From positions 1-51,999 of IMG/VR virus record IMGVR_UViG_3300031758_000112: DNA of 51,999 nt; one strand, written 5' to 3'. The notes beneath the pieces were generated by a model that was not told where the DNA came from, made no database searches, and was given only the letters and a program-made list of their open reading frames with translations. Numbering within the stretch: position 1 is the first letter of the stretch; every line of letters begins with the position of its first letter. Made by a program: the position numbers and the translations under genes. This DNA is from a virus. Lineage: Duplodnaviria; Caudoviricetes. This document shows positions 3,618 to 43,109 of this stretch, one piece after another.

Positions 3618-3835
3618 CAGGGTAATAGGGCATTACAGGGCAATTGATTTCCTATATATACCTCTGGCAAACACTATCATTTGCCACAACTGTCAACTAT
3701 CATCTTCCCAAAATATGTATATCTTTTTCTATTACCCTTATTACCCTAACTACTATATTCTTTAATGATTTCAAAGACTTAAGTCAGGGTAATAGGACAG
3801 GGTAATAGGCAGGGTAATAGACCCCCTTTACCCTG
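3618..3835. repeat. Iteron-like array of (C)AGGGTAAT(AG) in both orientations around an AT-rich core; putative replication origin
   Basis: Direct copies at 3618, 3785, 3798 and 3810, a degenerate copy at 3636, inverted copies at 3729, 3739 and 3828. Non-coding AT-rich gap directly downstream of the primase-helicase gene. Confidence 0.75.
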
Positions 3836-6143
3836 TAAATTCAGGCTCATCGGCAGGAACCAAGAAAACGACACGGCCATTTGTTTTTTTGCGCTGACCG
3901 CCGTTCAACTTTTTTAATGCCCTGCCGGCCGCAATCGTCTGCCCTTTTGACGGATCCCGCACACCAATCTTCATCAGCGCATCGGTTGCCGTCACCCACA
4001 AATCGTTTCCAAGCCCAAATTCCGACCAGCTAAATGCGGCCGCCAAGCGTTCCTCGATCGGATCAGCCACGGTGAACTCCTCGTTGTGTATGTTCAATTC
4101 GCCCATCTCTTGCATGTTCAAGGCCCAGTTTTCGCCGCTTGCCCACAACCCCTTCACTTCGGCCCAAAGCTGCTGCATATCAATACCGCTGTCCAAATTG
4201 AACCCGTCAACCTCGATCGACCAGAACCTGCGGTTGCCGGTCGGGTCATTCAGGTATTGGGATTCGTTGACCGTTCCGCCAAACACGGTGCGTCGTCCAA
4301 AGTTCGATTCGGTCGCAGCGTATGGCCGGCGCAGCTTGTCCATGGCCTGTGTCGTGAATGACTTGAGCGCGCTGATCTCGGACTTTGAGAAAGTCGCGTC
4401 AAGCTCACCCAGCTCCACGATCCAGTAGGACAGGGCAATGAAGATCGAGTCCTTGGACCTCATGTCCAGCGTGTGGCCTGTCAGGATTGCGTCAAGGTGG
4501 GCCGGCGCCAGCCTCTGGAACCAAGTTGTCTTGCCAATGTTCTGCGGTCCAACAAAGGTCAGGATGCCTTGGCCAGCGATCCCGTCAGGGCTGAAGGCCG
4601 CAGCCACTGCTTGAATGAGCCACTTGCGCATGAGCTTGCGCTTCATCTTCTCACCGCCGGCCGGCACCCGCACCGTGGCGTAAAAGTCATCGAGCCGCGA
4701 CACGCCGTCCCACGCCGAGCTGTCGATCCACGTCGCCACAGGGTTGTATTGGTTCTTGTCTGCAAGCGTGATCAGGAATTGGGCAACATGCTTGGTCGGC
4801 ATGCGCACGGTCTCGCACTCAGACAGGACGTGGGCTATGGCCGCGTTGTCCCGGTTGTCCCGTGTGAATGCGCTCCCCGGTATGAGCAGCTCGATGGCCT
4901 TCTTGATCACGTTGTATCGGACCCCATACCCCAGCTTGTCCATCAGCACGTAGAAGTTGGGCAAGGTGCACAGAGGGTAGCCGTCGTCGTTCAGGTTGAC
5001 AAAGCCGCCCGAGACCTTGACCCTCGCCCGAACCCACCCCCGGACAGTTGACAGTGGCAGTTTCGTGCCAAGGTCTTTGGCCCGCAGCTGGATCGCGACA
5101 GCGATCTGTTCGCGTTCCACGTCCGATATTTCGGCAGTGTGTGCGATGCCGGCAGCAATCTTTTCTTGCAGGTGGCGCACGTCAGTGCACGCGTCCACCA
5201 TGTCCATCACCGCAGCCAGAGCCACGTCGCGCTTGTCGAGCTTGGCCACTTCGCGTTTGTCTTTAGTGATGTGCAGCAGCGAGGCCAGCGTCACTGCCCC
5301 GCGCCCACCGGCCCTCTGCTGGCTAAAGCTGTCCCACTTCGACGCGCAGTAGCCCTCGATCCACTTGCCGGATGCAGCAGACCAGTTGTCCCAAGCATCA
5401 AGCCACTCCGGGTCACCGCCGCCTTGATGGTGCAATGCAGCACCCACCTTGAGCCAGTCACCGTAGCCAACGTCAGGGTCAAGGTGCACGAGCACTTCGT
5501 CGACCACGCGGTCAAGCTCCCACCCGTCGAGCGTGGACTTCAAGTTAGCGAAGGCGTCCTCGCCGGCGTCAGCGCCAGCGCTGAGCGCCTCGCCCCACAC
5601 CTTCTCGACCATCCAGCCTAGGTCCTGCGGCAGCATGGGCATCGACGCGTGTCCGTTGATCGCGTGGCCAGTCACTGTGAAATACCGGCCGTCTTTGTAC
5701 AGCTCAACGCCAGCCTCTTTTTTGGTGCGACTGCCATCAAGGTTGGTGGTCGTAAAGATCTTCAAGCCAGTGCCAGACGGCGACACTTCGGCGTAGCCTT
5801 CTACGCGGTCGAGTGTTTCTTGGGCAAGCTCACTCAGTGAGCCTGTGACCGGGTCGCGGCAGTCGTCTAGGTCGATGCCATGCAGAGTGCCGCCAAGCAC
5901 AATGCCGATGCCGTCGTAATCGCCCAGCAGGTATTCGTCTACGGCTGCACCGAACGACACCCACGTAGCTGCATCGGTCGAGCTGCCTGCGCCGCCCTTG
6001 GCAGAGAGCGGCATCTTGGCCCAGACCTTGTCGCCGTTGGGCTTGCTGCGCTGCACGTTCTTCCAAAGGACCCAGCGGTCCATCGCTTGCAGGTCGCGGG
6101 GTATGTTGTCTAAGCTAAGCGCCAGTACGTTGGGGCGAGTCAT
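3828..6143 (-). CDS. Primase-helicase: N-terminal AEP primase/polymerase, PriCT-2 domain, C-terminal VapE/VirE-type P-loop ATPase
   Basis: GIDLDDC and EVSPSGTGLKIF (AEP). YGDWLKVGAALH...WDNWS...KWDSF (PriCT-2). GPQNIGKT Walker A, WIVELGELD Walker B, DPTGNRRF. Confidence 0.88.
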   Translation of the reverse strand: MTRPNVLALSLDNIPRDLQAMDRWVLWKNVQRSKPNGDKVWAKMPLSAKGGAGSSTDAATWVSFGAAVDEYLLGDYDGIGIVLGGTLHGIDLDDCRDPVTGSLSELAQETLDRVEGYAEVSPSGTGLKIFTTTNLDGSRTKKEAGVELYKDGRYFTVTGHAINGHASMPMLPQDLGWMVEKVWGEALSAGADAGEDAFANLKSTLDGWELDRVVDEVLVHLDPDVGYGDWLKVGAALHHQGGGDPEWLDAWDNWSAASGKWIEGYCASKWDSFSQQRAGGRGAVTLASLLHITKDKREVAKLDKRDVALAAVMDMVDACTDVRHLQEKIAAGIAHTAEISDVEREQIAVAIQLRAKDLGTKLPLSTVRGWVRARVKVSGGFVNLNDDGYPLCTLPNFYVLMDKLGYGVRYNVIKKAIELLIPGSAFTRDNRDNAAIAHVLSECETVRMPTKHVAQFLITLADKNQYNPVATWIDSSAWDGVSRLDDFYATVRVPAGGEKMKRKLMRKWLIQAVAAAFSPDGIAGQGILTFVGPQNIGKTTWFQRLAPAHLDAILTGHTLDMRSKDSIFIALSYWIVELGELDATFSKSEISALKSFTTQAMDKLRRPYAATESNFGRRTVFGGTVNESQYLNDPTGNRRFWSIEVDGFNLDSGIDMQQLWAEVKGLWASGENWALNMQEMGELNIHNEEFTVADPIEERLAAAFSWSEFGLGNDLWVTATDALMKIGVRDPSKGQTIAAGRALKKLNGGQRKKTNGRVVFLVPADEPEFTG

Positions 6144-11127: not shown

Positions 11128-11212
11128 CGAGGAGCTTTGGATCTTGGTGCTCCACTACGAGCGCCTGATCCAATTACTTCTGGAACAACTAGATGGCAAC
11201 CCTGCGGATTGA
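11102..11212 (+). CDS. Possible 36-aa ORF MTQQTPLTNEELWILVLHYERLIQLLLEQLDGNPAD (not in ORF track)
   Basis: Fills the gap before PolA and overlaps both neighbours. Weak RBS. Confidence 0.4.
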   Translation: MTQQTPLTNEELWILVLHYERLIQLLLEQLDGNPAD

Positions 11213-13208
11213 CCTTGAGACGTACAGCGATGTCGACTTGAAAAAGTGCGGCGTGCATAAGTACGTCGAGTCGGACAACTTCGAAGTGATGTTGTTTGGA
11301 TTTAAATGGAGCACCGGCCAAGTGTGCGTCATTGATCTGGCCCAAGGGCAGGCGTTGCCCGAGCACATCGTTGCCGCATTGGACGACCCCACGATTACCA
11401 AGACCGCATACAACGCGGCCTTTGAGATTGCGTGCTTGAGCAAACATTTCAAGCGCCAGCTGGACGTGACCCAGTGGCGTTGCACCAGCGTGCACGCGCT
11501 GTACCTTGGCCTGCCCGGCAGCCTTGGTGATGTAGGCAAAGTGTTAGGGCTTGGAGACGACAAGCAAAAGCTGGTATCGGGCTGGGCCCTGATCCGCTAC
11601 TTCTGCCTGCCATGCAAACCGACACTGAAGAACGGTGGCCGCACGCGCAACCTACCGCACCACGATCCAGACAAGTGGGCGCTGTTCAAAGAATACTGCG
11701 CGCGTGACGTTGACTCAGAGGATGAGATCGCGATGAAGATCGCAAAGTTTCCGGTGCCCGATCAGGAGTGGAAGTTGTGGCACCTTGACCAACGCATGAT
11801 GAACAGGGGTGTAAGGGTTGACCGCGAGTTGGTCAACGCAGCCATCGAGTGCGACGGCATATTTAAAGAGCGGATGACCACCGAGGCCATTACTCTCACA
11901 GGTTTAGATAACCCTAACTCTCGGGACCAATTGCTCAAGTGGTTGCAGACCGAAGAGGAGGACGACACGATCGTTGACCTGACCAAGAAGAACGTGCCCA
12001 AGGTTCTTGAATCTACAGACAGCGCGACGGTGCGACGCGTGCTGGAGCTGCGCCAAGAGATGGCCAAGACAAGCGTGTCTAAGTATCACGCCATGGCCCG
12101 GGCCATGTGCGACAAGGACGACGCGGTCAAAGGCTTGACCCAGTTCTATGGTGCGAACCGCACCGGCCGTTGGGCTGGTCGTTTGGTGCAGGTGCAGAAC
12201 CTACCGCACAACAAGCTGCGCGACATCGACTTGGCCCGTAACTTGTTGAAGGCCCGTGACTACGAAACCCTTGAGCTGTTGTTTGGCAATGTGCCTGACA
12301 CGCTGTCACAGCTCATCAGGACTGCGTTCGTTGCGCGGGAGGGGTGCAGATACATCATCGTCGACTTCAGCGCCATTGAGGCCCGTGTGATTGCTTGGAT
12401 GGCATGGTGTCAGTGGCGGCTTGATGTGTTTGCCACACACGGCAAAATCTACGAAGCGTCGGCTGAGCAAATGTTTAACTTGCCGGCCGGCAGCGTCACG
12501 AAGAAATCGCCGTACCGCCAGAAGGGCAAGATCTCTGAGTTGGCTTTGGGATACCAAGGCGGGGCCGGCGCACTCAAGACTATGGGCGCGTTGGAGATGG
12601 GGCTCACAGAGGATGAGCTTGAGCCAATCAAAGACGCATGGCGCGGGGCCAACCCTGAGATCGTTCAGCTTTGGTACGCGTGCGAGCGCTCGGCCAAGGA
12701 CGCGGTGCTGGGCAAGAAGTCTGTCACGCTTTTGCTTGCAGGCAAGAAAGCTGCGCTGGTGTTTGCGTACGAGTCAGGGTTCCTGACGATCCAATTGCCA
12801 AGCAAGCGCAAGCTGTTTTATGTGAAGCCGCGCATTGAGGCTGAAGACCTTGTGCGTGAGACCAGTGCCGGCGGCAAATTCATTGCGGCCAGAGCAGGGT
12901 CCTTGACGTATGAAGGTCAGGACCAGAAGACCAAGCAGTGGACGCGCCTGTCTACGTACGGTGGCAAGCTGGTGGAGAACATTACACAGGCAGTGGCCCG
13001 TGATTGTTTGGCCGAGTCGATGCTGGCGCTGGACGATGCAGGCTACACGCAGCTGGCCACGGTGCACGACGAGATCATCATGGAGATGAAAGGCGGCACG
13101 TTGAAAGAAGCCGAAAAGATTATGGGCGAAGCCATTGCATGGGCGCCCGGCTTACCGTTGCGAGGCGACGGCTTTGAAACCAAGTACTACATGAAGGAGA
13201 TTGACTGA
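11193..13208 (+). CDS. polA: Family A DNA polymerase with 3'-5' exonuclease domain (phage type, Leu762)
   Basis: Exo I IDLETY, AYNAAFE, EYCARDV. RTGRWAG. Motif A DFSAIEARV, motif B RQKGKISELALGY, motif C TVHDEI. Confidence 0.95.
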   Translation: MATLRIDLETYSDVDLKKCGVHKYVESDNFEVMLFGFKWSTGQVCVIDLAQGQALPEHIVAALDDPTITKTAYNAAFEIACLSKHFKRQLDVTQWRCTSVHALYLGLPGSLGDVGKVLGLGDDKQKLVSGWALIRYFCLPCKPTLKNGGRTRNLPHHDPDKWALFKEYCARDVDSEDEIAMKIAKFPVPDQEWKLWHLDQRMMNRGVRVDRELVNAAIECDGIFKERMTTEAITLTGLDNPNSRDQLLKWLQTEEEDDTIVDLTKKNVPKVLESTDSATVRRVLELRQEMAKTSVSKYHAMARAMCDKDDAVKGLTQFYGANRTGRWAGRLVQVQNLPHNKLRDIDLARNLLKARDYETLELLFGNVPDTLSQLIRTAFVAREGCRYIIVDFSAIEARVIAWMAWCQWRLDVFATHGKIYEASAEQMFNLPAGSVTKKSPYRQKGKISELALGYQGGAGALKTMGALEMGLTEDELEPIKDAWRGANPEIVQLWYACERSAKDAVLGKKSVTLLLAGKKAALVFAYESGFLTIQLPSKRKLFYVKPRIEAEDLVRETSAGGKFIAARAGSLTYEGQDQKTKQWTRLSTYGGKLVENITQAVARDCLAESMLALDDAGYTQLATVHDEIIMEMKGGTLKEAEKIMGEAIAWAPGLPLRGDGFETKYYMKEID

Positions 13209-13459
13209 TGACACAAGACACGAAAATCTGGAGCGAAGACTTTGTATTGGCCAACCCTAAATTGGCAGCCGATGCCATTGGTTGTCTCATTGAGTTGAAC
13301 GAGTACGCGCGCAACAATACGCTTGATGAGATCTCAAAGAAAATAGCCGCCATGCCCGGAGACACGGCGGCTGGTATTGCCATCTGGATTCGAGAACAGA
13401 AAACTATTTCCGCTTCTCGCCCTCAACAGTTAGACCTTCCTTTAGACGCTGCTTCTTGA
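13208..13459 (+). CDS. Hypothetical protein
   Basis: TGATG-coupled to polA. Overlaps the end of the convergent giant gene by 56 nt. Confidence 0.55.
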   Translation: MTQDTKIWSEDFVLANPKLAADAIGCLIELNEYARNNTLDEISKKIAAMPGDTAAGIAIWIREQKTISASRPQQLDLPLDAAS

Positions 13460-16400
13460 TCTGCTGAAGCTCGCGTTGTGCATCGGCGTTCTTCTCAGTG
13501 ATGGCGCCTTTGCCAGCAAGCCTGTCGATCTGACGCATCTCAGCTTCAAGATCGCGTATCAGTTTTTCTTGCTGCGCTTTGTTGATCTGTTCTGATAACT
13601 CCAGATCGATTGGTCTTGCTTTGATACCCATGGTCTGCATTGCTGCGTAGCCGGGTTGTACTGGCAGGCCGTCTTTGCCTGTGCCGGTGTAGCCCAAAAT
13701 GTCTTGGCCGGTCACGTTGGCAATCACATTGAGCGCGCGGTCCCAGTGGTAGTTGCCAATGGCAACGGCCGGTGCAAACTGCTGCCACAACCACTTGCCG
13801 CGTTTGGCTGCGGCCTCTGCGCTGGTGTCGTTCTTGTCAACAATGTCTTTGCCAAAGAACGGGTCCTTGTTCCAGATCATTGCGCCGACTGTGTTGAGTA
13901 TCGGGTTGCTTGGTGTGATCGGCTGCAAAAGCGGGACGCCGCCGGCGTTGGCGTTTGCGTCTAGCAAGTCGCCGCCCGGGAAGACCCGGCTTACGTCCAA
14001 GAACACGGGCAGGTTGGTCACGTCGTCCATGCCAAGGCGGATAGCCTTTGGTGTGGCCAGCGTGGCGCTGGCGCCCTTCATCCAAGGCGGTAGGTTTTCG
14101 CGCTCTTGCTTCTCTATCTCGCGCGCCTTGTTCCTAAATTCAGGGTCGGTTGCGTAGCGGCGGATGACGGTCCACCAGTCTTCGTCCTCACCACCGCCAA
14201 GGCTGGCAGCCATTGCGTACATGAAGGCGTTGACTGTGTACAGCGCAGCAGCCGGGGCAGCGTATCGCATTGGGTGCTCAAGCGCCGTGCGCGCCAGCAC
14301 TGGCACGACCTTGTATGTGTAGCTAAAGAACGGCAGCGCAAAGTCACGAGCCAGACGCGCGCCCTTGGGCAGGTCGTCGTAGGTAAAGATAAAGTTCTGT
14401 GACCAATCGACCGCGTCTTCTACGTCGACCCCGCGCTTGCGCGCGTCACGGTAAATCAAGTAGCGGAAGAACAAGTCTTCGGCTTCGTACGCTTTGCCGG
14501 CCGGCTTGCGCAAGAAGAATGACAGGGCGTTGAACACCCGGTCAACAGCCATACCTGCTTTGGACTCCGTCATCTGGGCCATGGCCTTGAGCTGTTCTGG
14601 CAGCTGGTCCATTAACTCAGAACGGTTGAACGTGCCGCCAAACAAGCCAGCCTCTTTGGCTTCGTCAACCATGGGGTCGCCCTTGATCAGATCGCGCACT
14701 GCGCCGCCGTACTTACCGGCATCCCAGTAAGACACGCCAGCAAAGTGAGCCATGGTCAAGTTAGACAAAACGTTGTTGGCATGCGATACGGGATTGAGAA
14801 CGGTCTTGCCCTCTTTCCACATCGACAAACCTTTGAGATACATCTTGAGCAAATCGTTTTGCATTGATGTGTCAAAGGTGCTGAGCTGGTCCATCACTTC
14901 TTTGGGCACCCACTTACCGGCGAGCTTGCCATAGCGGCGAACGTTTGCGGTGTCTTCAATTGTGGATGAGGGAACCTTGACGTAACCGGGTTTTTCTACG
15001 CGACTTGCGTATGATGTTGCAAGGTTTTCATACAGACGGCCAAGCGCCATGTCGCGTTGGGATTTGTTGTAGCCCATGACAAAGCGGAACATGGCATCTC
15101 GGATCTCGCCCATGTCGTCGCGCTCGGTGCGTGTGTAGTCGCGCCACATTGTCACGACGTCACTGGTCAGCGGGTCGAACGTAGGATCGCGCACTTCCCA
15201 GCCTTCGTCGAGCCAGTCTTGCACGTCAGCAACGGGCACGTTCTCAAACATACCGCGAGCCTTGAGGCTGTTGCCGGTGATGCCCTGCATTGTGCGGGTG
15301 CGGCCCATCAAACTCTTGGCCGCTTTCATCCATGCTTTTGTTTCGTCGCCAATCTTGGACTCATAGAAACGTGGCAAGTATTTGCCGTCCCAGCGGCCAG
15401 CTGCTTCCGGTGTCAGCATGCCCAAGCGCACCAGTTCTGCGGTCTGTTCGGACATGATTGATTGCATTGAAGCGGCCAAATCTAACACACGCTTGGGTGG
15501 CTTGACGCCGCGCTTGAGTTCGCCCTCGATCACATCGCTGATCATCTGGCGCTCTTGCTCTGGCAAGTCTTTGAGGTTCTTGGCCACGTCGACCGTGAGG
15601 GCCTGCGCCTTCTCAACTTCGGTCTTCATCTTGCGCAGCGCGCGGCTCAGCTCAGGGCTGACTGGCTTCATGCCAATTCTGTCTAGTACGTTGTTGGCCA
15701 CATCGGCCACCAGACGGTAGGCCTTGGCGCCTGCACCAAAGCGGAAGCGGCCGGTGGCATCGCGGCTGAGGATCCAACCCTCAGTCTGGCGATTGCTGAA
15801 CATCATGTCAGCTGGGTTTTCTTGGCGCCACTGCGAGGCGGCTAAGACAAAGGCGTCAAAATCTTTGTCGCCAAACTCATCTATCGTTTTGTAGCCAGCC
15901 TCTTCGGCCTTCTCTTGCAGAAAGACCTGTTGCTGCTTGGCGTCTTCCGAAAGCTCTCTTTGTTTTACCGAGTAGCTTGGCCCTTCAAACTGACCCCGGC
16001 CTCGGCCTTCGCCAACAGCGCGCGTTTCGTCGCCAATAGTTTGGCCTGTGCTTCGGCCTTCTGGGCCGGTGTTAAAACCACGGGTGGTTGCGTCGTAGAC
16101 CGCTTGGTTGATGCGCCCTGCTTCAAGTTCTTTGTCTGTTGCATTTTGAAATTTCTCCCTCAAACCTTCTCTACTGACCACTGGAATTTCTTCAAGTGGA
16201 ACTACGGCAAAGTTACCGTTGCCTCGGCTGTTGTCGACCGCGACAATGTCGAACAATGGGTTGTCTGCAAAATCTCCTTGCAGCTTGAGCACCGTTTCGT
16301 TTGATCCTGCGTGGCCTTTTACCAAAGCATCAAGCGCAACAGTGCGCCCGTTCTTTGGGTCCATGGCTCGCTTGAATACCCCGGCAACTAGAGAGTCGAC

Positions 16401-18170
16401 AGGTTCGCGATATACATAAGCAATCATAACTGCTTGGCCAGAATCAAGAGCAAGCTGGATATTGCGCACGGCCTTGGCGTAACCAGACAGCGTGCCGTCA
16501 AGAATTGTGTTGGCTCGGTTGAACACATCGTCTAGCAAGGTCTCGGCACTGGACTTGCCGGAGCCGCCGCCACCGGCCATAAACAGCACAAGGCCGCCCG
16601 GTCTCTCGCGCATTTCTTGCATGCGTTTTTCAAACAGTTGCTGAGTAAAGGCGCTGGCTGCTTCGTGCACTTCAGGCGCGCGGTTGCGATCGGCCCTGTA
16701 TTCCGGCGACAGCAGGCGTGCCAGATCGGTGTCAAGCAGGCGGCCTTTTTTGGTGCCGTTGATTGCGCTGTACTCTTCAACAGCTGCGTCAAAGTCAGAA
16801 AAGATTTTTTGTTCAAGCAGCCTGTTGAGGTCGTCTTCTCTGGCGCTGAACGCAATCGGTGCGCCGGTGATGTCTTTGCCATCTTCGCTGAACGTGGCGT
16901 TCTTGGCCAACACCAAAGGGCCGATCTGGATCACCTCGTCGGCGCTCAGAACTGGGCGCATGGTGTCGCGGTCGTAGAAGTAGCTGTGGCGGAATGGGTC
17001 CATGCCGACCTGTGTCCAAGCCGAGTCTTTGATGGCGGCATCAGCCCGAACCTTTGCGGCTTGGTTGCTGATGGGTTTCCACTTACCAAGCATGGTGGCA
17101 ATCGTGCCCTTGCTTGTACCCTGTGCAATCTTGATTGCCGCCTTTTGGTTCATGCCAAAAGTTACGTCGGTCATTGATGCTACGGATTCGTAGCCAATGA
17201 CAGTGCCTGCGTCATACGCTGCTTGCACTTCACGGTTGGTGGACTTAGGTGTGTGAATGCTGACCACCCACGAGTCATGCTCTTGGTACGAAGGGATGTC
17301 CAAGCGCAGTTGGGCAAAGTCGCCTTTGGCCAAGGTGCTTGATGGCAGGCCATACTTGGCCGCCTTCTCCGGGCTTTGACCACGGCCATTGGCCAAAGCA
17401 TATTTAGCGTCGGCTGGTGTTGTGAGCGCAGGGACTTTTTCGTACGGATAGACCGGGCGAAGGTCGTCGACCATGGCGTTGTATTCGTCTTGGGTAATCT
17501 TGCCTTCTTGCAAGTCGGTGACGGCTTGCTGCAATTCGTCGGTTCGCTTGAATCGATCAGAGCTAACGTTGGACACGCGGCTTGCTGCCGCATTCTTTTG
17601 TTCGCGGCGGCTAAGGCTAGGTGCAATTACTTTACGGGCTACGATGCCAAGGCCAACATCAAGCTCGGTTGCATATCGAACCGGGTTTTCTACGGGGTAT
17701 AAATATTTAACGCCGCCCGGGGCAATGTCAAACTTAGAATCTTTGGGCACCAAAGTTTGATCTCGATATTGATCAAATTGTTTTTGAGTAGTTACTTTTA
17801 TAGGCTCGCCAATTGTTACCGCGCCAATTGCTTTAGCAGGGCCGTCGCCAGTTCTAACAATGGCAACTCGTTTTCCTACGTAGGGGCGAAGCGAATCCGA
17901 AGCCCTAGTTTCTAAAGTTTTTTGGCCGTCAACAATTTTATCTGCGTATTGATTTTCACCGTCTTGATTGACATTAATGCCAATGCTTTCAGTTTGTTCG
18001 CGTCGGCTAAGTGCTGGCGCCCCACCTCCGGCCTCAGCAAGCGCGGTTGCCCGAGCAGGCAAGTACTGAGCCAGCCCACCTTCAAGCAGGAATTCTTTAA
18101 GGGCGGGTATCCCCTTAACCGTGATGCTCTTACCGTCAGCACCAGTGAACGTGTATTTACATGTTGCCAT
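13404..18170 (-). CDS. Giant polyvalent / ejection protein (1588 aa): ASCH-like domain, unknown domain, zeta-toxin-like P-loop kinase, helical C-terminal ejection-type region
   Basis: YADKIVDGQKTLETR...GKRVAIV...AIGAVTIG (ASCH). VLFMAGGGGSGKS, ILDGT, YVYREP, GRTV (zeta-like). Last gene of the virion operon. Confidence 0.75.
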   Translation of the reverse strand: MATCKYTFTGADGKSITVKGIPALKEFLLEGGLAQYLPARATALAEAGGGAPALSRREQTESIGINVNQDGENQYADKIVDGQKTLETRASDSLRPYVGKRVAIVRTGDGPAKAIGAVTIGEPIKVTTQKQFDQYRDQTLVPKDSKFDIAPGGVKYLYPVENPVRYATELDVGLGIVARKVIAPSLSRREQKNAAASRVSNVSSDRFKRTDELQQAVTDLQEGKITQDEYNAMVDDLRPVYPYEKVPALTTPADAKYALANGRGQSPEKAAKYGLPSSTLAKGDFAQLRLDIPSYQEHDSWVVSIHTPKSTNREVQAAYDAGTVIGYESVASMTDVTFGMNQKAAIKIAQGTSKGTIATMLGKWKPISNQAAKVRADAAIKDSAWTQVGMDPFRHSYFYDRDTMRPVLSADEVIQIGPLVLAKNATFSEDGKDITGAPIAFSAREDDLNRLLEQKIFSDFDAAVEEYSAINGTKKGRLLDTDLARLLSPEYRADRNRAPEVHEAASAFTQQLFEKRMQEMRERPGGLVLFMAGGGGSGKSSAETLLDDVFNRANTILDGTLSGYAKAVRNIQLALDSGQAVMIAYVYREPVDSLVAGVFKRAMDPKNGRTVALDALVKGHAGSNETVLKLQGDFADNPLFDIVAVDNSRGNGNFAVVPLEEIPVVSREGLREKFQNATDKELEAGRINQAVYDATTRGFNTGPEGRSTGQTIGDETRAVGEGRGRGQFEGPSYSVKQRELSEDAKQQQVFLQEKAEEAGYKTIDEFGDKDFDAFVLAASQWRQENPADMMFSNRQTEGWILSRDATGRFRFGAGAKAYRLVADVANNVLDRIGMKPVSPELSRALRKMKTEVEKAQALTVDVAKNLKDLPEQERQMISDVIEGELKRGVKPPKRVLDLAASMQSIMSEQTAELVRLGMLTPEAAGRWDGKYLPRFYESKIGDETKAWMKAAKSLMGRTRTMQGITGNSLKARGMFENVPVADVQDWLDEGWEVRDPTFDPLTSDVVTMWRDYTRTERDDMGEIRDAMFRFVMGYNKSQRDMALGRLYENLATSYASRVEKPGYVKVPSSTIEDTANVRRYGKLAGKWVPKEVMDQLSTFDTSMQNDLLKMYLKGLSMWKEGKTVLNPVSHANNVLSNLTMAHFAGVSYWDAGKYGGAVRDLIKGDPMVDEAKEAGLFGGTFNRSELMDQLPEQLKAMAQMTESKAGMAVDRVFNALSFFLRKPAGKAYEAEDLFFRYLIYRDARKRGVDVEDAVDWSQNFIFTYDDLPKGARLARDFALPFFSYTYKVVPVLARTALEHPMRYAAPAAALYTVNAFMYAMAASLGGGEDEDWWTVIRRYATDPEFRNKAREIEKQERENLPPWMKGASATLATPKAIRLGMDDVTNLPVFLDVSRVFPGGDLLDANANAGGVPLLQPITPSNPILNTVGAMIWNKDPFFGKDIVDKNDTSAEAAAKRGKWLWQQFAPAVAIGNYHWDRALNVIANVTGQDILGYTGTGKDGLPVQPGYAAMQTMGIKARPIDLELSEQINKAQQEKLIRDLEAEMRQIDRLAGKGAITEKNADAQRELQQIKKQRLKEGLTVEGEKRK
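17597..18011. repeat. 19-bp direct repeat (18/19 identical) flanking the ASCH-like domain
   Basis: TTTGTTCGCGGCGGCTAAG (17597-17615) vs TTTGTTCGCGTCGGCTAAG (17993-18011). Both encode LSRREQ. Confidence 0.85.
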
Positions 18171-18174
18171 GTGA

Positions 18175-18666
18175 TCAGGCTCCCAGCTCCTGATCGATCA
18201 AGAGCATGCCCGCTTTGTCGCCATCTACTAGCTGGATGCGTGCAAGCAAGTCGCCGTACTCGCCAACGCTGGTACGCTGGAGCTCCAGAAACTGAAGCAA
18301 AAACTGTTGGACCACGGGGTCGCTGCTGGTCTCGGAGTACATATTTTTGTAAGTGTTATACAGCTCAAGCTCAGTTTCATAGGCCAATTCCATGGCATCA
18401 GAAAACGATTTGATTGAATCATCCATGGCCTCAATCATTGGGACCTTGGCCACGGTGCCTACATCGTTTTGAAATTGTGCGTGCAGTTGGTAGTGATCCA
18501 ACTCGGCTTCGCTTTCTTTCAAAAAGAATTTCATCGCGCCAAGGTAACCAAGGCGCTGCACCTGATTGGCGATGTGTTTGTACAGGTTTGCTGCGTAAAG
18601 CTCAGCGTGAATTGCGTCGTCAAGCATGCGCTTGATGTCAGCGGAGATGATCATTGTTGGTGTCAT
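18175..18666 (-). CDS. ftn: Ferritin (non-haem FtnA-like)
   Basis: 163 aa, four-helix pattern. E22, Y29, E55, H58, E99 and Q130 match the spacing of E. coli FtnA ferroxidase ligands E17, Y24, E50, H53, E94 and Q127. Confidence 0.85.
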   Translation of the reverse strand: MTPTMIISADIKRMLDDAIHAELYAANLYKHIANQVQRLGYLGAMKFFLKESEAELDHYQLHAQFQNDVGTVAKVPMIEAMDDSIKSFSDAMELAYETELELYNTYKNMYSETSSDPVVQQFLLQFLELQRTSVGEYGDLLARIQLVDGDKAGMLLIDQELGA

Positions 18667-18675
18667 GGTAGGCCC

Positions 18676-21600
18676 TTATTTGCAATTGATTTCGACTAAG
18701 CCAGCTGTGTCCAGCTCGTCGAGGATGTCGAGAAAATTGTCCTGCATGTATTGAATTTGAGCCGCGTCTGACCGCCGCGCAATCACGGCTTGAACGTTTG
18801 TCTTGGCAAGGCCTCGACCATCCAGCTTAGTAAACAGATTGACAAGGGGCATAGCATTTGCCCTGCTGTCTAAAGTTTTTTCGGTTCTTGCTCGGATGAG
18901 GTCTGATCGCTCTTGTCCTTGGAACGGACCCAACCTTTGACCCGCGCCGCCAACCGGTCCAGTTGTTCCGGCGTTTTGCTTTCCAGCCATTTGTCGTGCT
19001 GGTCCTGATCCTGATTTGGCTGCTGTGTTGATTCGTTTAGCATCGAAGCCTTCTTTCTTTAGGAGAGATTGTGCCGCACCAGCGTAGTCTTGGCTAGTCA
19101 CGCGGAGCCTTACGCCCAGCTTTTTATAGAGCTCTTGTTCAGGGTACCAGATCAAGGCTTGCAACGCGGCCGGCGGCACGCGCTTACCAGTTTGCTTTTC
19201 AACCAGATCTACCATCTCGCGAACAACGCTGCGCAAACGCTGGCGTTCACCGCCACTGGACGGGGCGTCCGTAGGCTTATCTGCTGATTTTAATATGGAC
19301 CCAGCTGCGCCAACCAATGCGGTCTTCTTGCGCGTGCCAGCGTCAAACTTGGCGCGCTCTTTGATGAACTGCCTGTTGTGCAAACTGAACACCTTGCGCG
19401 CCAAAGCAATTGCGCCTTCGTCGGTTTGTTGCGCGGCAGCAACATCTTCTGGTTTGAAGTCTGCGGCGTAAACGCCCTCGGCCGATGAGCCTGTCTCAGC
19501 CAAAGCAGCGCGCAGCTTGGCCACTTGTTTGGGAAACAGGGCCGGGTCAAACGCTGGCAGCGTGCCACTTAAACGGCCGACGGTGCGCATGAACCACATG
19601 TCCATGGTCACGGGTTCAAAGTTGCCGGTCAAGTTGCTGTAAAAGCCAAAGCCAATCTTGGGTCCAAACACAGCGGACCCTAAAACCGTTTCGCCCATTG
19701 ACTCGCCACCAATCTTAAAGCCCATGCCTTCGAGATCCCGCTTGGTCAATTCAGTTTGTAAGAACCTGCGCAGATCAGGGGCGCCCAATTCTCTTAGCAA
19801 GCTGTTGGCCAGCGCAAAATTCTTGGCCATCGCTGGCGCAGACTTGCCAGTGCCCTGCTCTGGAAATGCGCCCGTATCCGTTTTGCGAAGGGCTTCGCGG
19901 AACGCTTCGTATTGATTTGACGCATAGCGCAAGTTGTCTTCTACGTTCATGGTCTGCGACGAGATGGCCACGGCCATCAAAAATGCATTGCGCGCGTCTG
20001 GGTCTGTGTTTAGTTCGGGGTACTTGACAGCCATGACACGCAGCGTTTTAGCTACAGTCTCGTCGTACCATTCGACAGCATTGCCCGCGCTGCGAATTGC
20101 GCCAACAGCCTCGGCTGCCAGCATGCGTGCCAGCGTGCTGCGGTCGTCGGCCTTGTTAAGGTCAAGCACCGGCATGCCCGCGTCACGGTAGCGCTGGTCA
20201 AGCCATTGCACAACTTCCGGAATGCCGCCAACTTTAGGCGCATCAAACGCATCGCTTTTGGTTTTGCCTGTCATCAAACCTAGAACAGAAGCGTCGTATT
20301 GTTCCTTGGACAAACCAAGCGCGTCGGCCACATTGCGGAACGTACCGAGATCGGTTGGCTTTTCTTCAACAGGCTCTGCTTGTTTATCGCTAAACCTGAC
20401 GGTGCTGCCGATGCGCTCCAGCTCTGTGTTGGCCGCGTCGCGTGAGGCAACGGGGATCTCCAGATTGCCAGCAGCAACACGGGCGCCCGGTACACGGGAT
20501 GCCTCGATAGTGGCCAGCTCTTTGGAAAGGAGACCCTTCTTCAGCGTTGTTGGTTCGGCTGCAACAGGGGCTGGGGCGCCAGCCACGCGGCCTATAGACT
20601 TGACAGGTACGGCCGAATGGCGCGGACCCAACAGGACGACAGCAGCTTGATTGTTCCCGAAAGGGGCAATGTAACCGTCAAAACCCCCGTTAATTACTGC
20701 GGATTCGAAGGCGTTGAAGTTTCCTTTGACCGGGAGTATCTGCGTTTGGGGGTCGTAGATGTTGTTGAGTCGGACTTCGTGGGCGATGCCTCCGACTCCG
20801 GACTCGGGGCGGACGCCGGAGCCTTGGTCAACATAGAAATAAACGCGGTTTTTGAGGCGAGGATCTGGGCTACCGTCCAGTCGATCGCGCTCTGCACCTT
20901 TGAGACCAGTCCCATAATAAGCTCCATTTAACGAAGTGCGGGCTTCGGTTGAGTAGTGGCGGGCGAGGACTGAGATGGCGCCTTCGCGGGCTGTTCCATA
21001 CTCTGGGGTTTCACCGCGCCCATCTCCACCAGCGAGTTGTCGAGTTGACGCTGTAGGCCCTGATACGCCTTCACCGCCTGTGGTGCTAATGCTTCCATTT
21101 AAAGTTCCTTTGTTATACGCGACGAGTGCGTCGCGGGCTATTGCCTTTGCCTTGTTTAAATCACGCAGGTAGGTGTCGACTTTGGCAGATTCTTTTCTGC
21201 CTTGAGTTGACGTGCCCTTAAGCGTGTCAATCAAATTGTCAATGATCTTAATCCATTTGTCGACAAAACCTTTAAAGCCTTGTGGGTCAGCAGCTGCCAC
21301 GTCCTGCCAGAACTTTTTGTCTGTGGCCCGGTTGCCTAGGAAATCGGCAACCATTTCGGACCGCAGGGTCTTGCCGGCCATTGCTTCTTGCAAGCGTTGT
21401 TCCCGCGCAACAGGATCGGCGATTGCGCCCAGCTCTTCCTTCATCAGGAAGTTTTCAAGGTATGCGCGTTTACCCGCATCGGTCATCTCGTCAAAGATGC
21501 CGTCCATGCTGGCCACGTATTGCTGAGCGGCCGTGTTGGTTTGGCCTTGCTTGGCTTCCAGTTTTGCAAGCTGTTCAACCGTGTGATGGAATTCGTGTAG

Positions 21601-23934
21601 GCCTGTGCGCGCAACGTTGGTGTCAACGTTGGCTGTGTTAATGAAGGCCGCGCCGCCAATGGCCACGCCGTTTATGGCGTTGGCTCGGTCGTCGTTATAA
21701 GCGTAAACCCTAGCACCAAACTGGCTATTCAGCGCTTGAGCGATTTCATTGACTGCGCTGTCCAGTGCTACTGGAGACGCATTGAAAACCGCTGGGCTTT
21801 CTACACCGTTGGAAGTAGCCCACCTGTCGATAACATCTTGTGCAGTTGCTCTCGCTCCTGCTGCGGCAGACTCTCCTCCCACTGGCGCAATTGCGGCACC
21901 AGACACTTCCGATTCTGGGAGGGTAAGGGTTTTGTCGGCGGTGATGGTTTGGGTTGCTGCATCGGCTGATAGTACGGCAGGGACGTTTGTAAGTCCAGTG
22001 GCTGGGGTAGTACCAGCCACTTCCGCTTGACGCGCTGTGAGCTCAACTGACGCGCCTCTGCGGGTAATTGCAGGGATGGTCTCGTCAGTAGTGATGGCCT
22101 GAAGCTGGTCGTTGGACAGTTGCGAAACCGCAACACCTTGGATCTTTTGTGGACGCGGTGCAGTCAAACGCAACTTGTCCAAACCAAACTGTTGTTCTGT
22201 AGCAACGCTTGGTTCGGGCAACGTTAGGGCCTGCATTGTGTCAAGGGCAGGCAACGGCTCGTTGGGATCAAACGTTGGCTCGATCCGGCCAAGGGTATCT
22301 ACGGCCGGCAACGGCGGGGGTTCAATTGCAACAGGCGCAAGCGGCTTGGGTGTGATCTCCAGCGATCCGGCCAATTCATTTGCCGAGGTGACCGCGTCGT
22401 CAACCGAGGTTGATTGCAAAACGCGTGATGGGTCTGACGTTTGCAGCGGGCTGATCAACCGGGCGTCGTATGTCTGGGGACTTAATAGGTTACGGGCAGT
22501 TTGGTCAATACCTGTAAACTGGGTATTGGCAACGTTCTGTTCAATAGCCCGGGCAATCTGCGCGTTGGGGTCGTAGGCGCCCGTAGCAATGCCGGCAACT
22601 TGCGGCGTTGACATGACCGTGCCCGTAGCTGCGCCAATCACAGCGGCCTCACCAAGATCTTTGCTTAGCTCAATGTCTTTGCCTTGGAAAAACTTGTCAA
22701 GCACGTTGCCGCCAAATTGGGCAACCGTTTCTTCAACGGCGTTGGTAATGCCGTTGGCTGTGATTGCAACACCTGACTGCGCCAGTCTCTGTCCAGTAAT
22801 TGCCCAGATGGCGTTTTGCTTTGCAACCGATAGGCCTTTAAACGTGTCGCCCAATTTGTCAAAAACTTTTAACGGCAACATCTCTGTGCCGATTTCAATT
22901 GCGCCCTTGGTTACAGCTACCCGAGAGTCATCGCCCTGCGCGTAGCTTTGGCCAGCCGCTGTGCCGCCCATGCTGCCCAGCAAGGCTACGCGAAGCGGAG
23001 GTACAAAAGCCGCAGCCAATTGCTGTGCCATTTGAGGGGAGTTAGCCGCCAGCTTGGACATAAGCCACGGGCCAAACTCTTCGTTTTTCCACGCGCCTTC
23101 CATGCTGCGGGTGCCAATCTTAGGCATGTAATCTTGAGTGCTTTTGGCAAGGTATTCAGTACCAAACGCGGTAGGCGCTCTGGCCAAAGGTTTTAGACCG
23201 GCCAATTGCAAAACGGGGTTGACAACACTTTGGTTGATAAAGTCGGCCGCTACGCTTGGAATGTTTAAGGTGCCGCTAAGCAAACCCGCTGAACCGGCAG
23301 CAGCGCTGGCAAGCAAAGGGCTTTCTTCAGCAGAGCGTTGGCGACGCGCAGTTTCAACATCTTGCTGTAACAGCTCGTCGCTCTTTAACCGTTGAACCAG
23401 TTGGTCAAAAGTTTCGGCGCCTTGGGCTTCGCGAGCTTTGGCAACAGTAAGCGCGGGGCCCGGCTCAACCGGTACGCGCCCCATGCGCATTTGGTCGGCC
23501 TTGGCCACAGTCTCGCGACTGATAGGTCCTGCGCCATAGCCCAAGCGCTTGTCAATTTCGGCCTGTTGCTGTTGAGCTGTTAACGCAGGCGCTGTCTCCA
23601 ACACGCTTTTGTAGGGCGTGACTTTTTCCACAAAGGCGGGAACGATCCCACTAACCGTGCCTTTGATAGCCTCGGCCGCGCGCGACAGCACGCCCGGTGG
23701 CTCTTTTGGTTTAACAGGTGCAGGCGCGGGTGCAGGCGCGGGTGCAGGGGCTTCCTCCACTGGCGCCGCTTTGGGGGCAGCAACCCGACTCGTCAGGTGG
23801 CTTATGATTTCGTCGTCGCTAACGCCGTCCTTACGAGCGCTATCAACGTCGAAGTTTCTTTTGCTGGCAAGGTAGTCAGCAATCTCGGCCGGGCTGTATC
23901 CGTCCTTTAAAGCACCTTGAACGTCAAATGCCAT
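18676..23934 (-). CDS. Giant polyvalent / internal virion protein (1752 aa): zincin metallopeptidase, ART-like and HhH glycosylase-like domains
   Basis: N-terminal GYSxxEI-type repeats. HEFHH plus downstream EMVADF (zincin). RHYS...VYFY...GFDGY (ART-like). WYD...GPKIG.F..NL.G...VTMDMWFMR...LQALIW (HhH-like). Confidence 0.72.
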   Translation of the reverse strand: MAFDVQGALKDGYSPAEIADYLASKRNFDVDSARKDGVSDDEIISHLTSRVAAPKAAPVEEAPAPAPAPAPAPVKPKEPPGVLSRAAEAIKGTVSGIVPAFVEKVTPYKSVLETAPALTAQQQQAEIDKRLGYGAGPISRETVAKADQMRMGRVPVEPGPALTVAKAREAQGAETFDQLVQRLKSDELLQQDVETARRQRSAEESPLLASAAAGSAGLLSGTLNIPSVAADFINQSVVNPVLQLAGLKPLARAPTAFGTEYLAKSTQDYMPKIGTRSMEGAWKNEEFGPWLMSKLAANSPQMAQQLAAAFVPPLRVALLGSMGGTAAGQSYAQGDDSRVAVTKGAIEIGTEMLPLKVFDKLGDTFKGLSVAKQNAIWAITGQRLAQSGVAITANGITNAVEETVAQFGGNVLDKFFQGKDIELSKDLGEAAVIGAATGTVMSTPQVAGIATGAYDPNAQIARAIEQNVANTQFTGIDQTARNLLSPQTYDARLISPLQTSDPSRVLQSTSVDDAVTSANELAGSLEITPKPLAPVAIEPPPLPAVDTLGRIEPTFDPNEPLPALDTMQALTLPEPSVATEQQFGLDKLRLTAPRPQKIQGVAVSQLSNDQLQAITTDETIPAITRRGASVELTARQAEVAGTTPATGLTNVPAVLSADAATQTITADKTLTLPESEVSGAAIAPVGGESAAAGARATAQDVIDRWATSNGVESPAVFNASPVALDSAVNEIAQALNSQFGARVYAYNDDRANAINGVAIGGAAFINTANVDTNVARTGLHEFHHTVEQLAKLEAKQGQTNTAAQQYVASMDGIFDEMTDAGKRAYLENFLMKEELGAIADPVAREQRLQEAMAGKTLRSEMVADFLGNRATDKKFWQDVAAADPQGFKGFVDKWIKIIDNLIDTLKGTSTQGRKESAKVDTYLRDLNKAKAIARDALVAYNKGTLNGSISTTGGEGVSGPTASTRQLAGGDGRGETPEYGTAREGAISVLARHYSTEARTSLNGAYYGTGLKGAERDRLDGSPDPRLKNRVYFYVDQGSGVRPESGVGGIAHEVRLNNIYDPQTQILPVKGNFNAFESAVINGGFDGYIAPFGNNQAAVVLLGPRHSAVPVKSIGRVAGAPAPVAAEPTTLKKGLLSKELATIEASRVPGARVAAGNLEIPVASRDAANTELERIGSTVRFSDKQAEPVEEKPTDLGTFRNVADALGLSKEQYDASVLGLMTGKTKSDAFDAPKVGGIPEVVQWLDQRYRDAGMPVLDLNKADDRSTLARMLAAEAVGAIRSAGNAVEWYDETVAKTLRVMAVKYPELNTDPDARNAFLMAVAISSQTMNVEDNLRYASNQYEAFREALRKTDTGAFPEQGTGKSAPAMAKNFALANSLLRELGAPDLRRFLQTELTKRDLEGMGFKIGGESMGETVLGSAVFGPKIGFGFYSNLTGNFEPVTMDMWFMRTVGRLSGTLPAFDPALFPKQVAKLRAALAETGSSAEGVYAADFKPEDVAAAQQTDEGAIALARKVFSLHNRQFIKERAKFDAGTRKKTALVGAAGSILKSADKPTDAPSSGGERQRLRSVVREMVDLVEKQTGKRVPPAALQALIWYPEQELYKKLGVRLRVTSQDYAGAAQSLLKKEGFDAKRINTAAKSGSGPARQMAGKQNAGTTGPVGGAGQRLGPFQGQERSDLIRARTEKTLDSRANAMPLVNLFTKLDGRGLAKTNVQAVIARRSDAAQIQYMQDNFLDILDELDTAGLVEINCK

Positions 23935-42050: not shown

Positions 42051-43109
42051 TTACAGAGCGGTCACACCGGCTTCGATACGGGCCATGAAGGCGTCGTTGA
42101 GACGCACAGTCGCGAACCATGTAGAAGCACCCACGTAGCCGAATTGGCCCAATGGGTTGGCGTGGTTGGTCTGTGAGGCTTTGAGGACCACAGGCTTGAT
42201 GGCAGACATGCCCTTAAGAGCGACTTGGCCCCAGCAGTCTTCACCGATGATGATGAAGGGATACACGTCAACGTTAGCAGCGCCAACAGACAACATGCCG
42301 TTCAAGGTTGCAGAACCAGCAGCAGCAAAGGATTTCAACAGCGGTGAGCTGATGAAACGGAAGTCTTCGCAAGCGCCGATTTCGCGGTCATGGATTGGCT
42401 TGAATGAACCGTACTCTTCCACACGGGTGAAGCCGGGCAAGTTACGGATGTCGCTGACAGCGTCAGTGTGGCAGAAGATAACGTATGCGGGCTGCACAGC
42501 GCGAGTGCCGAAGTTGACACCGGGAGCCAGACGGCTGGTCACACGGCGTGAACGGTTGGACTCAAGCGTACGAGCTGCTTTACGAATTGCGTTCAAGCTG
42601 ATTGCTGTGTTGATTGCAGAGCGGCTAGAACCGTTTGCATAGATCACAGTAGAACCGGCTTTCAGCACACCGTAACGAACCATCTCCATCACCTCAGCCA
42701 AAGTCTCGCCTGTGAGCTTGACCATTTCGCCGGGGATGTCATCTTCGTACAGCTGCTCAACTTTGCTGGAGTACTTGAACAGCACGCCATATTGTTGCAA
42801 CTGAACAGACACGTCTTGGAAAGAGATCGTGTTTGCGTTGGGTGTCACACCTTCAGCCAACACGAAGTTGGAAGCGGTGATGTCAGGAGTGCCAACGTAG
42901 CGAGAAGAGTTCTCGATTGTTGTACCTGCGGTAGATGCGCCGAAAGGCAGAGTACGACGGAACACCAAGGTGTCTGTCGAGTTCTGTGGCATCTCACGTT
43001 GAGTACCGAAGTCGCCCAAAACAGTGATGGGCTGTGCGTGTTCAAGCATACCTTGGGCGGCGCGGATTAGATTTCGCGATGCTACGGTGCCGTAATTTTG
43101 AATAGACAT
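42051..43109 (-). CDS. Major capsid protein, N4-gp56 family
   Basis: MPQN...FRR, LAEGVTP, LQQYG, EIGACEDFRFI, DVYPFIIIGED, NPLGQFGYVG. 352 aa, after the scaffold. Confidence 0.9.
   Translation of the reverse strand: MSIQNYGTVASRNLIRAAQGMLEHAQPITVLGDFGTQREMPQNSTDTLVFRRTLPFGASTAGTTIENSSRYVGTPDITASNFVLAEGVTPNANTISFQDVSVQLQQYGVLFKYSSKVEQLYEDDIPGEMVKLTGETLAEVMEMVRYGVLKAGSTVIYANGSSRSAINTAISLNAIRKAARTLESNRSRRVTSRLAPGVNFGTRAVQPAYVIFCHTDAVSDIRNLPGFTRVEEYGSFKPIHDREIGACEDFRFISSPLLKSFAAAGSATLNGMLSVGAANVDVYPFIIIGEDCWGQVALKGMSAIKPVVLKASQTNHANPLGQFGYVGASTWFATVRLNDAFMARIEAGVTAL

Follow-up and report, generated by a model that had tools for sequence, protein, structure and literature searches.

A junction peptide at the borders of exchangeable cassettes in two giant polyvalent proteins of an uncultured podophage, and its possible cleavage by an embedded zincin-like domain

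The IMG/VR virus record IMGVR_UViG_3300031758_000112, whose 51,999 bases were analyzed as a whole and are called the window here, encodes on its minus strand two giant proteins, A (1752 amino acids (aa), 18676..23934) and B (1588 aa, 13404..18170), in which a short peptide of the type [FLY]-S-x-[RK]-[QE] recurs between unrelated domains. In a preliminary description made from the sequence alone, this peptide was regarded as a linker at which a zincin encoded in A cuts a virion-delivered polyprotein to release effectors. The locus raises the question of whether the peptide is a cutting site, a linker that stays intact, or a trace of recombination. The best explanation that we can offer is that A and B are carriers of exchangeable cassettes in an ejection complex and that the cassettes are freed at the peptide by the zincin of A, a proposal that we consider about evenly balanced between right and wrong. 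That modules are gained, lost, and reordered exactly at the peptide is observed directly.

Exchange of cassettes at the junction peptide

The open reading frames (ORFs) of 1588 and 1752 aa, the seven motif strings, and the HEFHH sequence (21583-21597) were all located where the preliminary description had placed them. B contains five copies of S-x-[RK]-[EQ] and A contains two, and all seven are sites quoted in that description. Its regular expression matched A and B seven times, compared with a mean of 0.66 in 2000 shuffles, none of which reached seven (0/2000); the expression was defined post hoc, after looking at the sequences, and the real test is provided by relatives. Viral contigs scanned with the core of B yielded 30 related loci with core identities of 68–97%, and two families of 121 proteins each were compiled, the B family from B and 120 of 562 database matches and the A family from A and 120 of 360 matches. 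Across the 30 loci and approximately 240 database relatives, the motif recurred and sharpened to [AP]-x-[A/R/M]-[FLY]-S-x-[RK]-[QE]. In 36 distinct full-length contexts, the residue preceding Ser (position −1) was F in 22, L in 10, Y in 3, and V in 1, position −2 was mostly Ala, and positions −5 and −4 were mostly Ala and Pro; position +2 was R in 25 and K in 11, and position +3 was Q in 22 and E in 14. The variant forms FQKRQ, FAKRQ, and FSQRV were also found in relatives.

A 10-column matrix was built from 30 contexts, and at a threshold of ≥12 it gave 0.019 sites per 1000 aa in shuffled sequences. In the B family, 340 sites were found in the 121 proteins (1.75 per 1000 aa vs. 0.019), with at least one site in 113 of them, an enrichment that is descriptive and no independent test, as the matrix was trained on the same family. 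In the A family, a matrix site lay 350–420 residues after HExxH in 119 of the 121 proteins (VRFS[EK]KQ, VRFAKKQ, APAF[AS]KKQ, or IRFSARE). A six-frame scan of the whole window (score ≥9) detected five sites in B, two in A, one of them weak, and one in an unannotated frame of 91 aa; the capsid, portal, and scaffold frames lacked the motif. PTASTRQ in A has Ala instead of F/L/Y before Ser and scored below 9 in the window, and S-x-R-Q is kept there in relatives. A diverse comparison set consisted of 149 ART-PolyVal proteins, of 14,186 clusters matched. In this set, [FLY]S.[RK][EQ] gave 52 matches compared with 45 in shuffles, which marks the full motif as specific to the lineage. Only a less strict pattern at module ends, P-x-[IVLM]-[RLAKM]-[FYML]-S (typically NPDIRFS), was enriched in the same set, with 113 occurrences vs. 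12 in shuffles, often approximately 10 residues ahead of the TPEFKxWFG start of the next ART domain. This pattern may punctuate ART arrays in general, and the h-x-[FL]-S core may predate the [RK]-[QE] extension.

B is composed of a leader, four cassettes, and a conserved core. The leader (residues 1-46; 18033..18170) contains Cys4, the only Cys of B, and forms a small folded unit with a predicted local distance difference test (pLDDT) score of 69–81; here and below, every structure is a predicted one (AlphaFold/AF2 models). Junction 1, L54-S-R-R-E58 (PALSRREQ; 17997..18011, Ser55 at 18008), is followed by an ASCH-like cassette (59-185; 17616..17996), and junction 2, L186-S-R-R-E190 (PSLSRREQ; 17601..17615, Ser187 at 17612), by an L5 gp82-like cassette (191-440; 16851..17600). 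Junction 3, F441-S-A-R-E445 (IAFSARED; 16836..16850, Ser442 at 16847), precedes a zeta-toxin-type kinase cassette (446-732; 15975..16835), junction 4, Y733-S-V-K-Q737 (PSYSVKQ; 15960..15974, Ser734 at 15971), a small helical module, M4 (738-790; 15801..15959), and junction 5, F791-S-N-R-Q795 (MMFSNRQ; 15786..15800, Ser792 at 15797), the conserved core of 793 residues (796-1588; 13407..15785). The core is LPD38-related, with LPD38 clusters as its Atlas neighbors, and includes a 54-residue segment alignable to gp26 of cyanopodophage A4. Regarding the domain labels proposed earlier, the zeta-kinase-like label was confirmed by Pfam (PF06414, 28.6 bits vs. a cut-off of 22.3) and by Foldseek (E 5.3e-13 over 275 columns to N. 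gonorrhoeae zeta_1, 6epg). The ASCH label is weak (Pfam E 0.0088, under the cut-off), and the domain that had been left as unknown is L5 gp82-like (PF25735, 26.1 bits vs. a cut-off of 27; also phrog_586).

Of the 511 internal segment ends obtained by BLAST of B against 140 non-redundant members of its family, 294 fell no more than 5 residues, and 414 no more than 12, from one of the five sites; the expected share near the sites was 8% for the whole protein or 16% for the first 800 residues. The B protein of one related locus, L005, corresponds to that of the window without the zeta cassette, and in its junction, APIAFSAKQREL, sites 3 and 4 are merged into a hybrid (APIAFSA/KQREL). An extra 193-aa module stands in front of ASCH in L028 and occurs without ASCH in L004, and the window has ASCH only. 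These joints all lie inside LSRREQ, and the interval between the two LSRREQ repeats is exactly the one in which the ASCH cassette may or may not be found. When the 140 proteins were split at the motif, 32 segment clusters and 55 architectures were obtained. The zeta cassette lies ahead of the gp82-like cassette in P0033 and behind it in P0007, the ART cassette was found in three different slots, and ASCH occurs on either side of the gp82-like cassette. Complete B proteins of the related loci were 908–2054 aa long, with the variation in the part ahead of the core, and the cassettes named by Pfam in relatives were ART-PolyVal, L5 gp82-like, and zeta toxin and, weakly, RelA/SpoT, ASCH, and MuF_C, with LPD38 in the core. 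A and B of the window gave no ART-PolyVal or LPD38 match in Pfam; PF18760 and PF18857 matched in close relatives of B. In A, approximately 200 extra residues were found exactly at site 1182 in four relatives (L028, L023, L020, and L021). A and B are arrays of polyvalent cassettes with the motif at the module boundaries, as had been proposed, and the anticipated gain and loss of domains in close relatives was accompanied by reordering. The motif is a true cassette junction.

In a distant clade, B was only 908–910 aa long, and A was 26–28% identical over the aligned part. L029 carries an ART cassette between FMFSKRA and PDIRRSNRS, where L011 reads FMFSKRAETNI; therefore, the joint persists with an altered code. 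In L009, L010, L011, L029, L032, and L033, the B protein of 908–910 aa has no cassettes and keeps the leader, a degenerate motif, a 58-aa M4 helix module, a degenerate motif, and the core, and the cassettes are found in the longer A protein (2094–2449 aa). The motif is not used by every indel. Relative to L011, the A-like protein of L029 contains at residues ~600-773 (L029:3618-4139) an insertion of approximately 135 residues that looks ParB-like (DGHHQW), and its edges show no recognizable junction motif.

A consists of a conserved N-terminal part, the zincin-like domain (690-946; 21097..21867) with HEFHH at residues 780-784, an ART/RES-fold domain (986-1174; 20413..20979), a helical domain with the HhH-GPD glycosylase fold (1259-1609; 19108..20160), and a C-terminal helical tail (1673-1752; 18679..18918) that ends in INCK and contains Cys1751, the only Cys of A. 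Its two junctions are A962-S-T-R-Q966 (PTASTRQ; 21037..21051, Ser963 at 21048) and F1181-S-D-K-Q1185 (VRFSDKQ; 20380..20394, Ser1182 at 20391). ELTARQ (631-636; 22027..22044), upstream of the zincin-like domain, is a weak candidate for a variant junction with Thr for Ser, which is kept in the family consensus and lies outside the folded model. Residues 986-1174 matched ART/RES-fold toxins, namely MbcT (Z 6.5, 125 aligned), NatT (6.1), ParT (5.9), and diphtheria toxin (5.7), and residues 1259-1609 matched HhH-GPD glycosylases, namely Tm1821 OGG (Z 8.0, 192 aligned), MagIII (7.1), ROS1 (7.0), endonuclease III (EndoIII, 6.6), and MutY (6.2), with more than 12 such entries in the top 36. These models support the ART-like (Z 5.4–6.5) and HhH-glycosylase-like (Z 6.0–8.0) labels at the fold level only; the Z values are middling, the argument for the two folds is the consistency of the match lists, and the predicted folds do not imply activity. 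The BFVD matches of A carry the name "large polyvalent protein associated domain", and PHROGs, Pfam, and NCBIfam contained no family for A. Searches of whole A and B against the PDB with phmmer gave nothing for B and only low-complexity matches for A, and the A2 profile gave nothing useful. A Kyte-Doolittle scan of both proteins found no 19-residue stretch of ≥1.4, and no membrane-spanning segment is claimed. A second indel hot spot lies just ahead of the C-terminal tail of A (18844-18934, A ~1667-1697), where L005 and L027 have approximately 250 extra residues beside PFQGQE, which may be a degenerate junction; this extra sequence is similar to part of the giant protein of Limnohabitans phage DC33.

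The preliminary description had suggested that domain boundaries be compared with the motif positions, and the modeled sites fell in low-confidence linkers. AlphaFold modeling of B 1-800 (46-row alignment; mean pLDDT 62.6) gave pLDDT values below 50 at 441-446, which is exactly site 3 and lies between domains at 70–94, at 698-740 (site 4), and at 786-800 (site 5). In the model of A 690-1752 (mean pLDDT 73.6), site 963 was inside a stretch of pLDDT <50 (943-980), and site 1182 was at the start of another such stretch (1184-1191). F441 and S442 of B were invariant in the 46 aligned sequences. Roseobacter phage CRP-207 gp58 resembles B through the gp82-like domain as far as the conserved ...IQIGPLVLA.NA strand, beyond which its sequence differs and has no motif; therefore, the motif is not part of that fold. 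We are highly confident that the motif is a functional junction peptide.

The probable ejection complex and the zincin-like domain

In the solved pre-ejectosome of cyanopodophage A4 (PDB 9K3A/9K2V; PMC12002296), gp27 and gp26 make up an outer ring that surrounds the core next to the portal; gp27 reaches into gp26 with its C-terminal helix, and a Cys1715(gp27)-Cys5(gp26) disulfide is seen by cryo-electron microscopy. The B-family profile detected a single chain in the PDB, 9k3a_A (A4 gp26; hmmsearch E 0.0035, 55 residues), and hhalign of the B family with the gp26 sequence from the phage record gave a probability of 57% and an E of 1e-4 over a 54-55-residue segment; phmmer with the single B core found nothing in the PDB. 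The genes for gp27 (1717 aa) and gp26 (1114 aa) adjoin each other at the end of the structural operon in the A-4L genome. The four proteins have exactly one Cys each: Cys1715 in gp27, Cys5 in gp26, Cys1751 in A (18682-18684), and Cys4 in B (18159-18161). The Cys was within the last six residues in 120/120 A-family proteins and within the first eight in 116/120 B-family proteins, with a mean of 1.0 Cys per protein. This pattern places the Cys residues of A and B at the ends that match the gp27/gp26 disulfide pair, and a corresponding bond may join A and B. As in A4, two giant genes are adjacent at the distal end of the structural operon, with a ferritin-like gene between them in the window, and gp27 holds an ART-like stretch, as does A. 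In contrast, A4 lacks the junction motif, HExxH, a cassette array in gp26, and a ferritin gene between gp27 and gp26. A and B are probably the functional counterparts of gp27 and gp26, and for B the correspondence is probably also evolutionary; the weak homology to A4 is supported by a single short segment, together with the cysteine pattern and the order of the genes. The match to this solved pair makes the delivery in the virion that had been suggested plausible.

Polyvalent proteins, as described by Iyer et al. 2017 (PMC5512222), combine disparate enzyme domains in one phage polypeptide, and a metallopeptidase domain, MPTase, is proposed to process the chain in a manner likened to that of RNA-virus polyproteins. 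A and B contain a zeta kinase, L5 gp82-like and ASCH-like domains, ART and HhH-GPD folds, and an HExxH domain, and they are located among phage late/virion genes, with terminase, portal, capsid, and tail genes upstream on the same strand. A and B are phage-type polyvalent proteins, with ART-PolyVal, LPD38, zeta kinase, and RelA/SpoT-like domains in their relatives and an embedded HExxH domain in A. They differ from those described in that the zincin of A matches no library family and in that a peptide marks every junction here, whereas the accessible text of Iyer et al. contains "linker" 0 times and "cleavage site" once and defines no junction or cleavage motif (PMC5512222). No such junction peptide was found in print in full-text literature searches, which returned mostly listings, or in the accessible parts of Iyer et al. 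and the A4 paper. Added here are the large natural set of rearrangements and the tie to a solved ejection complex.

HExxH was present in 121/121 A-family proteins and in all 16 locus-derived A proteins with this region present. E781 of A was invariant, and H780 and H784 were kept in at least 90%. In the AF2 model, a helix (33-45) is followed by three strands (54-58, 67-70, and 73-77) and a helix (89-106) with HExxH at 91-95 (model numbering), all at a pLDDT of 80–88. This predicted series of a helix, a three-strand sheet, and an HExxH helix is the MPTase arrangement described by Iyer et al. (PMC5512222). Conserved acidic candidates for a third zinc ligand are E787, three residues after HExxH and kept in at least 90%, and the invariant E860; an acidic residue at the former position recalls the phage-type clade of Iyer et al., which has Asp there (PMC5512222).

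Several comparisons bear on a link between the domain and the motif. Among the 149 diverse ART-PolyVal proteins, the 9 that matched a hidden Markov model of this zincin carried 0.575 matrix hits per 1000 aa vs. 0.081 in the other 140. Limnohabitans phage DC33 encodes a 3125-aa protein that shares the ART-fold and later domains with A (34% identity), has a different HExxH context, and has homologous joints without the motif. In the divergent clade, a divergent zincin (HEAHHGLPQE) occurs together with a changed junction code. DC33 and this clade are hints of co-variation between zincin and motif and no proof of it. A predicted complex of the zincin domain with B 425-464 scored 0.02 vs. a mark of 0.32, without controls, and speaks neither for nor against binding. 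The DC33 protein joins A-like and B-like parts in one chain, indicating that A and B can be one gene. The taxonomy line of its record (L003, PQ492659.1) reads Inoviridae, yet the genome is 39 kb long and encodes a 3125-aa polyvalent protein, and the label looks wrong.

In the proposed mechanism, A and B would be the two large outer proteins of an internal ejection complex, turned into carriers of swappable enzyme cassettes. The N-terminal ~625 residues and the C-terminal tail with its single Cys (1673-1752) would anchor A, the Cys-bearing leader (1-46) and the 793-residue core would anchor B, and the cassettes would be loops between these anchors, packaged by covalent membership of ejection-complex proteins. 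The junction peptide, with the core [FLY]-S-x-[RK]-[QE] and usually A/P-x-A ahead of it, lies in a flexible linker at each cassette boundary. After assembly in the head or after ejection, the zincin would cut it, and the enzymes would be freed while the anchors stayed with the channel. We give the peptide roughly equal chances of being a protease site or not, and the zincin of A being the protease that cuts it is possible, at slightly less than even chances. Tentatively, the locus may be a self-contained device for cargo release, in which a co-packaged zincin reads a lineage-specific junction code and frees, in the host, cassettes tethered at both ends. The code would be [FLY]-S-x-[RK]-[QE] here, [FR]-S-[KN]-R-[AS] in the divergent clade, and other peptides in other polyvalent lineages; protease and code would co-evolve, and any module bracketed by the code would become deliverable. 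MARTX-type toxins have an exchangeable effector array that is released by a built-in protease at inter-domain sites. The likeness of A and B to these toxins and to RNA-virus polyproteins is analogy only, and protease class, delivery route, and ancestry are unrelated.

Alternatives to cleavage by the zincin-like domain

Several observations weigh against the proposed mechanism. Foldseek of the A model against the PDB gave no match at E ≤0.001, with 3c37_B as the best zincin (probability 0.35), and the two VIA fold-match lists included no solved zincin, which says little for a model of 1063 residues whose other domains fill the lists. No Pfam, PHROGs, or NCBIfam family named the zincin domain or matched it as a separate piece, and the nearest Atlas clusters are unnamed. 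The co-distribution of zincin and motif in the diverse set came mainly from P0382, P0352, and P0271, giant proteins that are probably deep relatives of A by descent, and is therefore not independent evidence. Within the A family the zincin is universal, even where B has no cassettes, and there is therefore no within-family contrast for a link between the two. As for the models, sites 1 and 2 of B lie within residues 48-210, a stretch absent from the model, and are uninformative, and the low pLDDT at the modeled junctions may be partly due to alignment breaks. The matrix enrichment in the B family is, as stated, no independent test. A showed no detectable sequence homology to gp27 (hhalign probability 0.45%), and the A2 profile found no A4 chain in the PDB.

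The main rival, which we consider doubtful, is that the motif is a functional linker element that stays uncut, such as a hinge or a docking peptide for assembly, packing, or unfolding; the cassettes would act tethered, and the zincin would attack, for example, host proteins or the cell wall. It is favored by A4 gp27, which has an ART-like stretch and neither motif nor HExxH, indicating that tethered cassettes without cutting are viable, and by the persistence of the zincin where B has no cassettes. The layout of the minimal 910-aa B, in which two degenerate motifs flank M4 between leader and core, also suits a structural role. Iyer et al. list polyvalent proteins that are delivered uncut (N4 virion RNA polymerase, ArdC, and TraC1) and allow for a peptidase as an effector (PMC5512222). 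On the other hand, an invariant Phe-Ser followed by a basic residue and Gln/Glu, in a variable and predicted-disordered linker across unrelated folds, exceeds the needs of a hinge, and no partner is known for a docking peptide.

That the motif is cut by another protease, either a phage head protease that escaped recognition or a host enzyme, is improbable. In T4 and phiKZ-type phages, proteins carried in the head are processed by head proteases: the internal proteins of T4, which have a targeting sequence, and the inner-body proteins of phiKZ and SPN3US enter the head, are cut at a short recurring motif by the prohead protease, and are injected. In those systems, capsid and scaffold proteins share the motif, and cutting is done by a distinct enzyme of head assembly. 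Here the motif is confined to A and B, with no site in the capsid, scaffold, and portal frames, and the one protease candidate is embedded in A. Four ORFs between the portal and capsid genes, and several others, had no family match and could hide a protease; no protease family was detected between those two genes, although a negative library search is not proof. A Pfam scan of 31 proteins or pieces from the window, which left out several small ORFs and some early genes, revealed no other peptidase family. The capsid protein matches its family from its start, and a separate gene is of scaffold size, an arrangement that would be that of podophages without a head protease.

Very improbable is the explanation that the motif is conserved as a by-product of homologous recombination in shared DNA, the peptide having no function of its own. 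The preliminary description had likewise proposed that the linker DNA serves as a domain-swapping joint, and this part held for one pair of sites: the two LSRREQ sites are identical at 18 of 19 nucleotides, the sole pair with shared DNA, and this identity fits homologous recombination for the ASCH polymorphism between them. Elsewhere, codons differ freely. In 62 distinct motif 30-mers, Phe was encoded by TTC in 24 and TTT in 23, Ser by AGC in 39, AGT in 8, and TCN in 4, and Gln by CAG in 20 and CAA in 16, and Arg and Lys used seven codons. All synonymous codons were thus in use, including both AGY and TCN serines, and no conserved DNA core for a site-specific enzyme was found. This free variation indicates that selection acts on the peptide and not on the DNA. 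Two further candidates were ruled out, a split intein across the A/B junction, for which the sequences have no HN or Cys+1 layout, and self-cleavage at Phe-Ser as in Nup98, as unrelated cassette folds could not all strain that bond.

Genomic setting and significance

The record, which the window spans completely, was estimated by CheckV to be 93% complete, and its layout is of the podophage type. Replication genes are on the plus strand and include a family A DNA polymerase (11193-13208) and a primase/VapE-like gene (3828-6143). The long structural operon on the minus strand contains the large terminase (49440-50909), an SU10-type portal (46804-49032), the major capsid protein (42051-43109), tail and fiber genes, and a lysozyme, with A, a ferritin-like gene, and B at its far end. 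No phage record similar to the 10.5-kb region was retrieved by megablast, and protein matches of named phages to the window were patchy and module-sized. The source phage is uncultured, and its lineage is one of freshwater podophages.

The ferritin/Dps-like gene (163 aa; 18175..18666, minus strand; Pfam Ferritin E 1.7e-15) lies between A and B, at distances of 9 and 4 nucleotides from them, respectively. It was present in 22 of the 30 related loci, always between the A-like and B-like genes where both ends were present. It may be a virion component or serve in iron handling or DNA protection. This gene is context and stands outside the motif system.

Since 2017, the idea that a zinc peptidase processes polyvalent proteins has had no defined cutting site, and this lineage supplies exact residues. 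It is also a natural library of at least 55 cassette arrangements under one junction rule, and the A4 structure indicates physically where in the virion the cassettes would be located. Should cutting be confirmed, the range of proteins that a podophage can import as ready-made enzymes would be set by the junction peptide, which would also provide a rule for reading such cargo from metagenomes.

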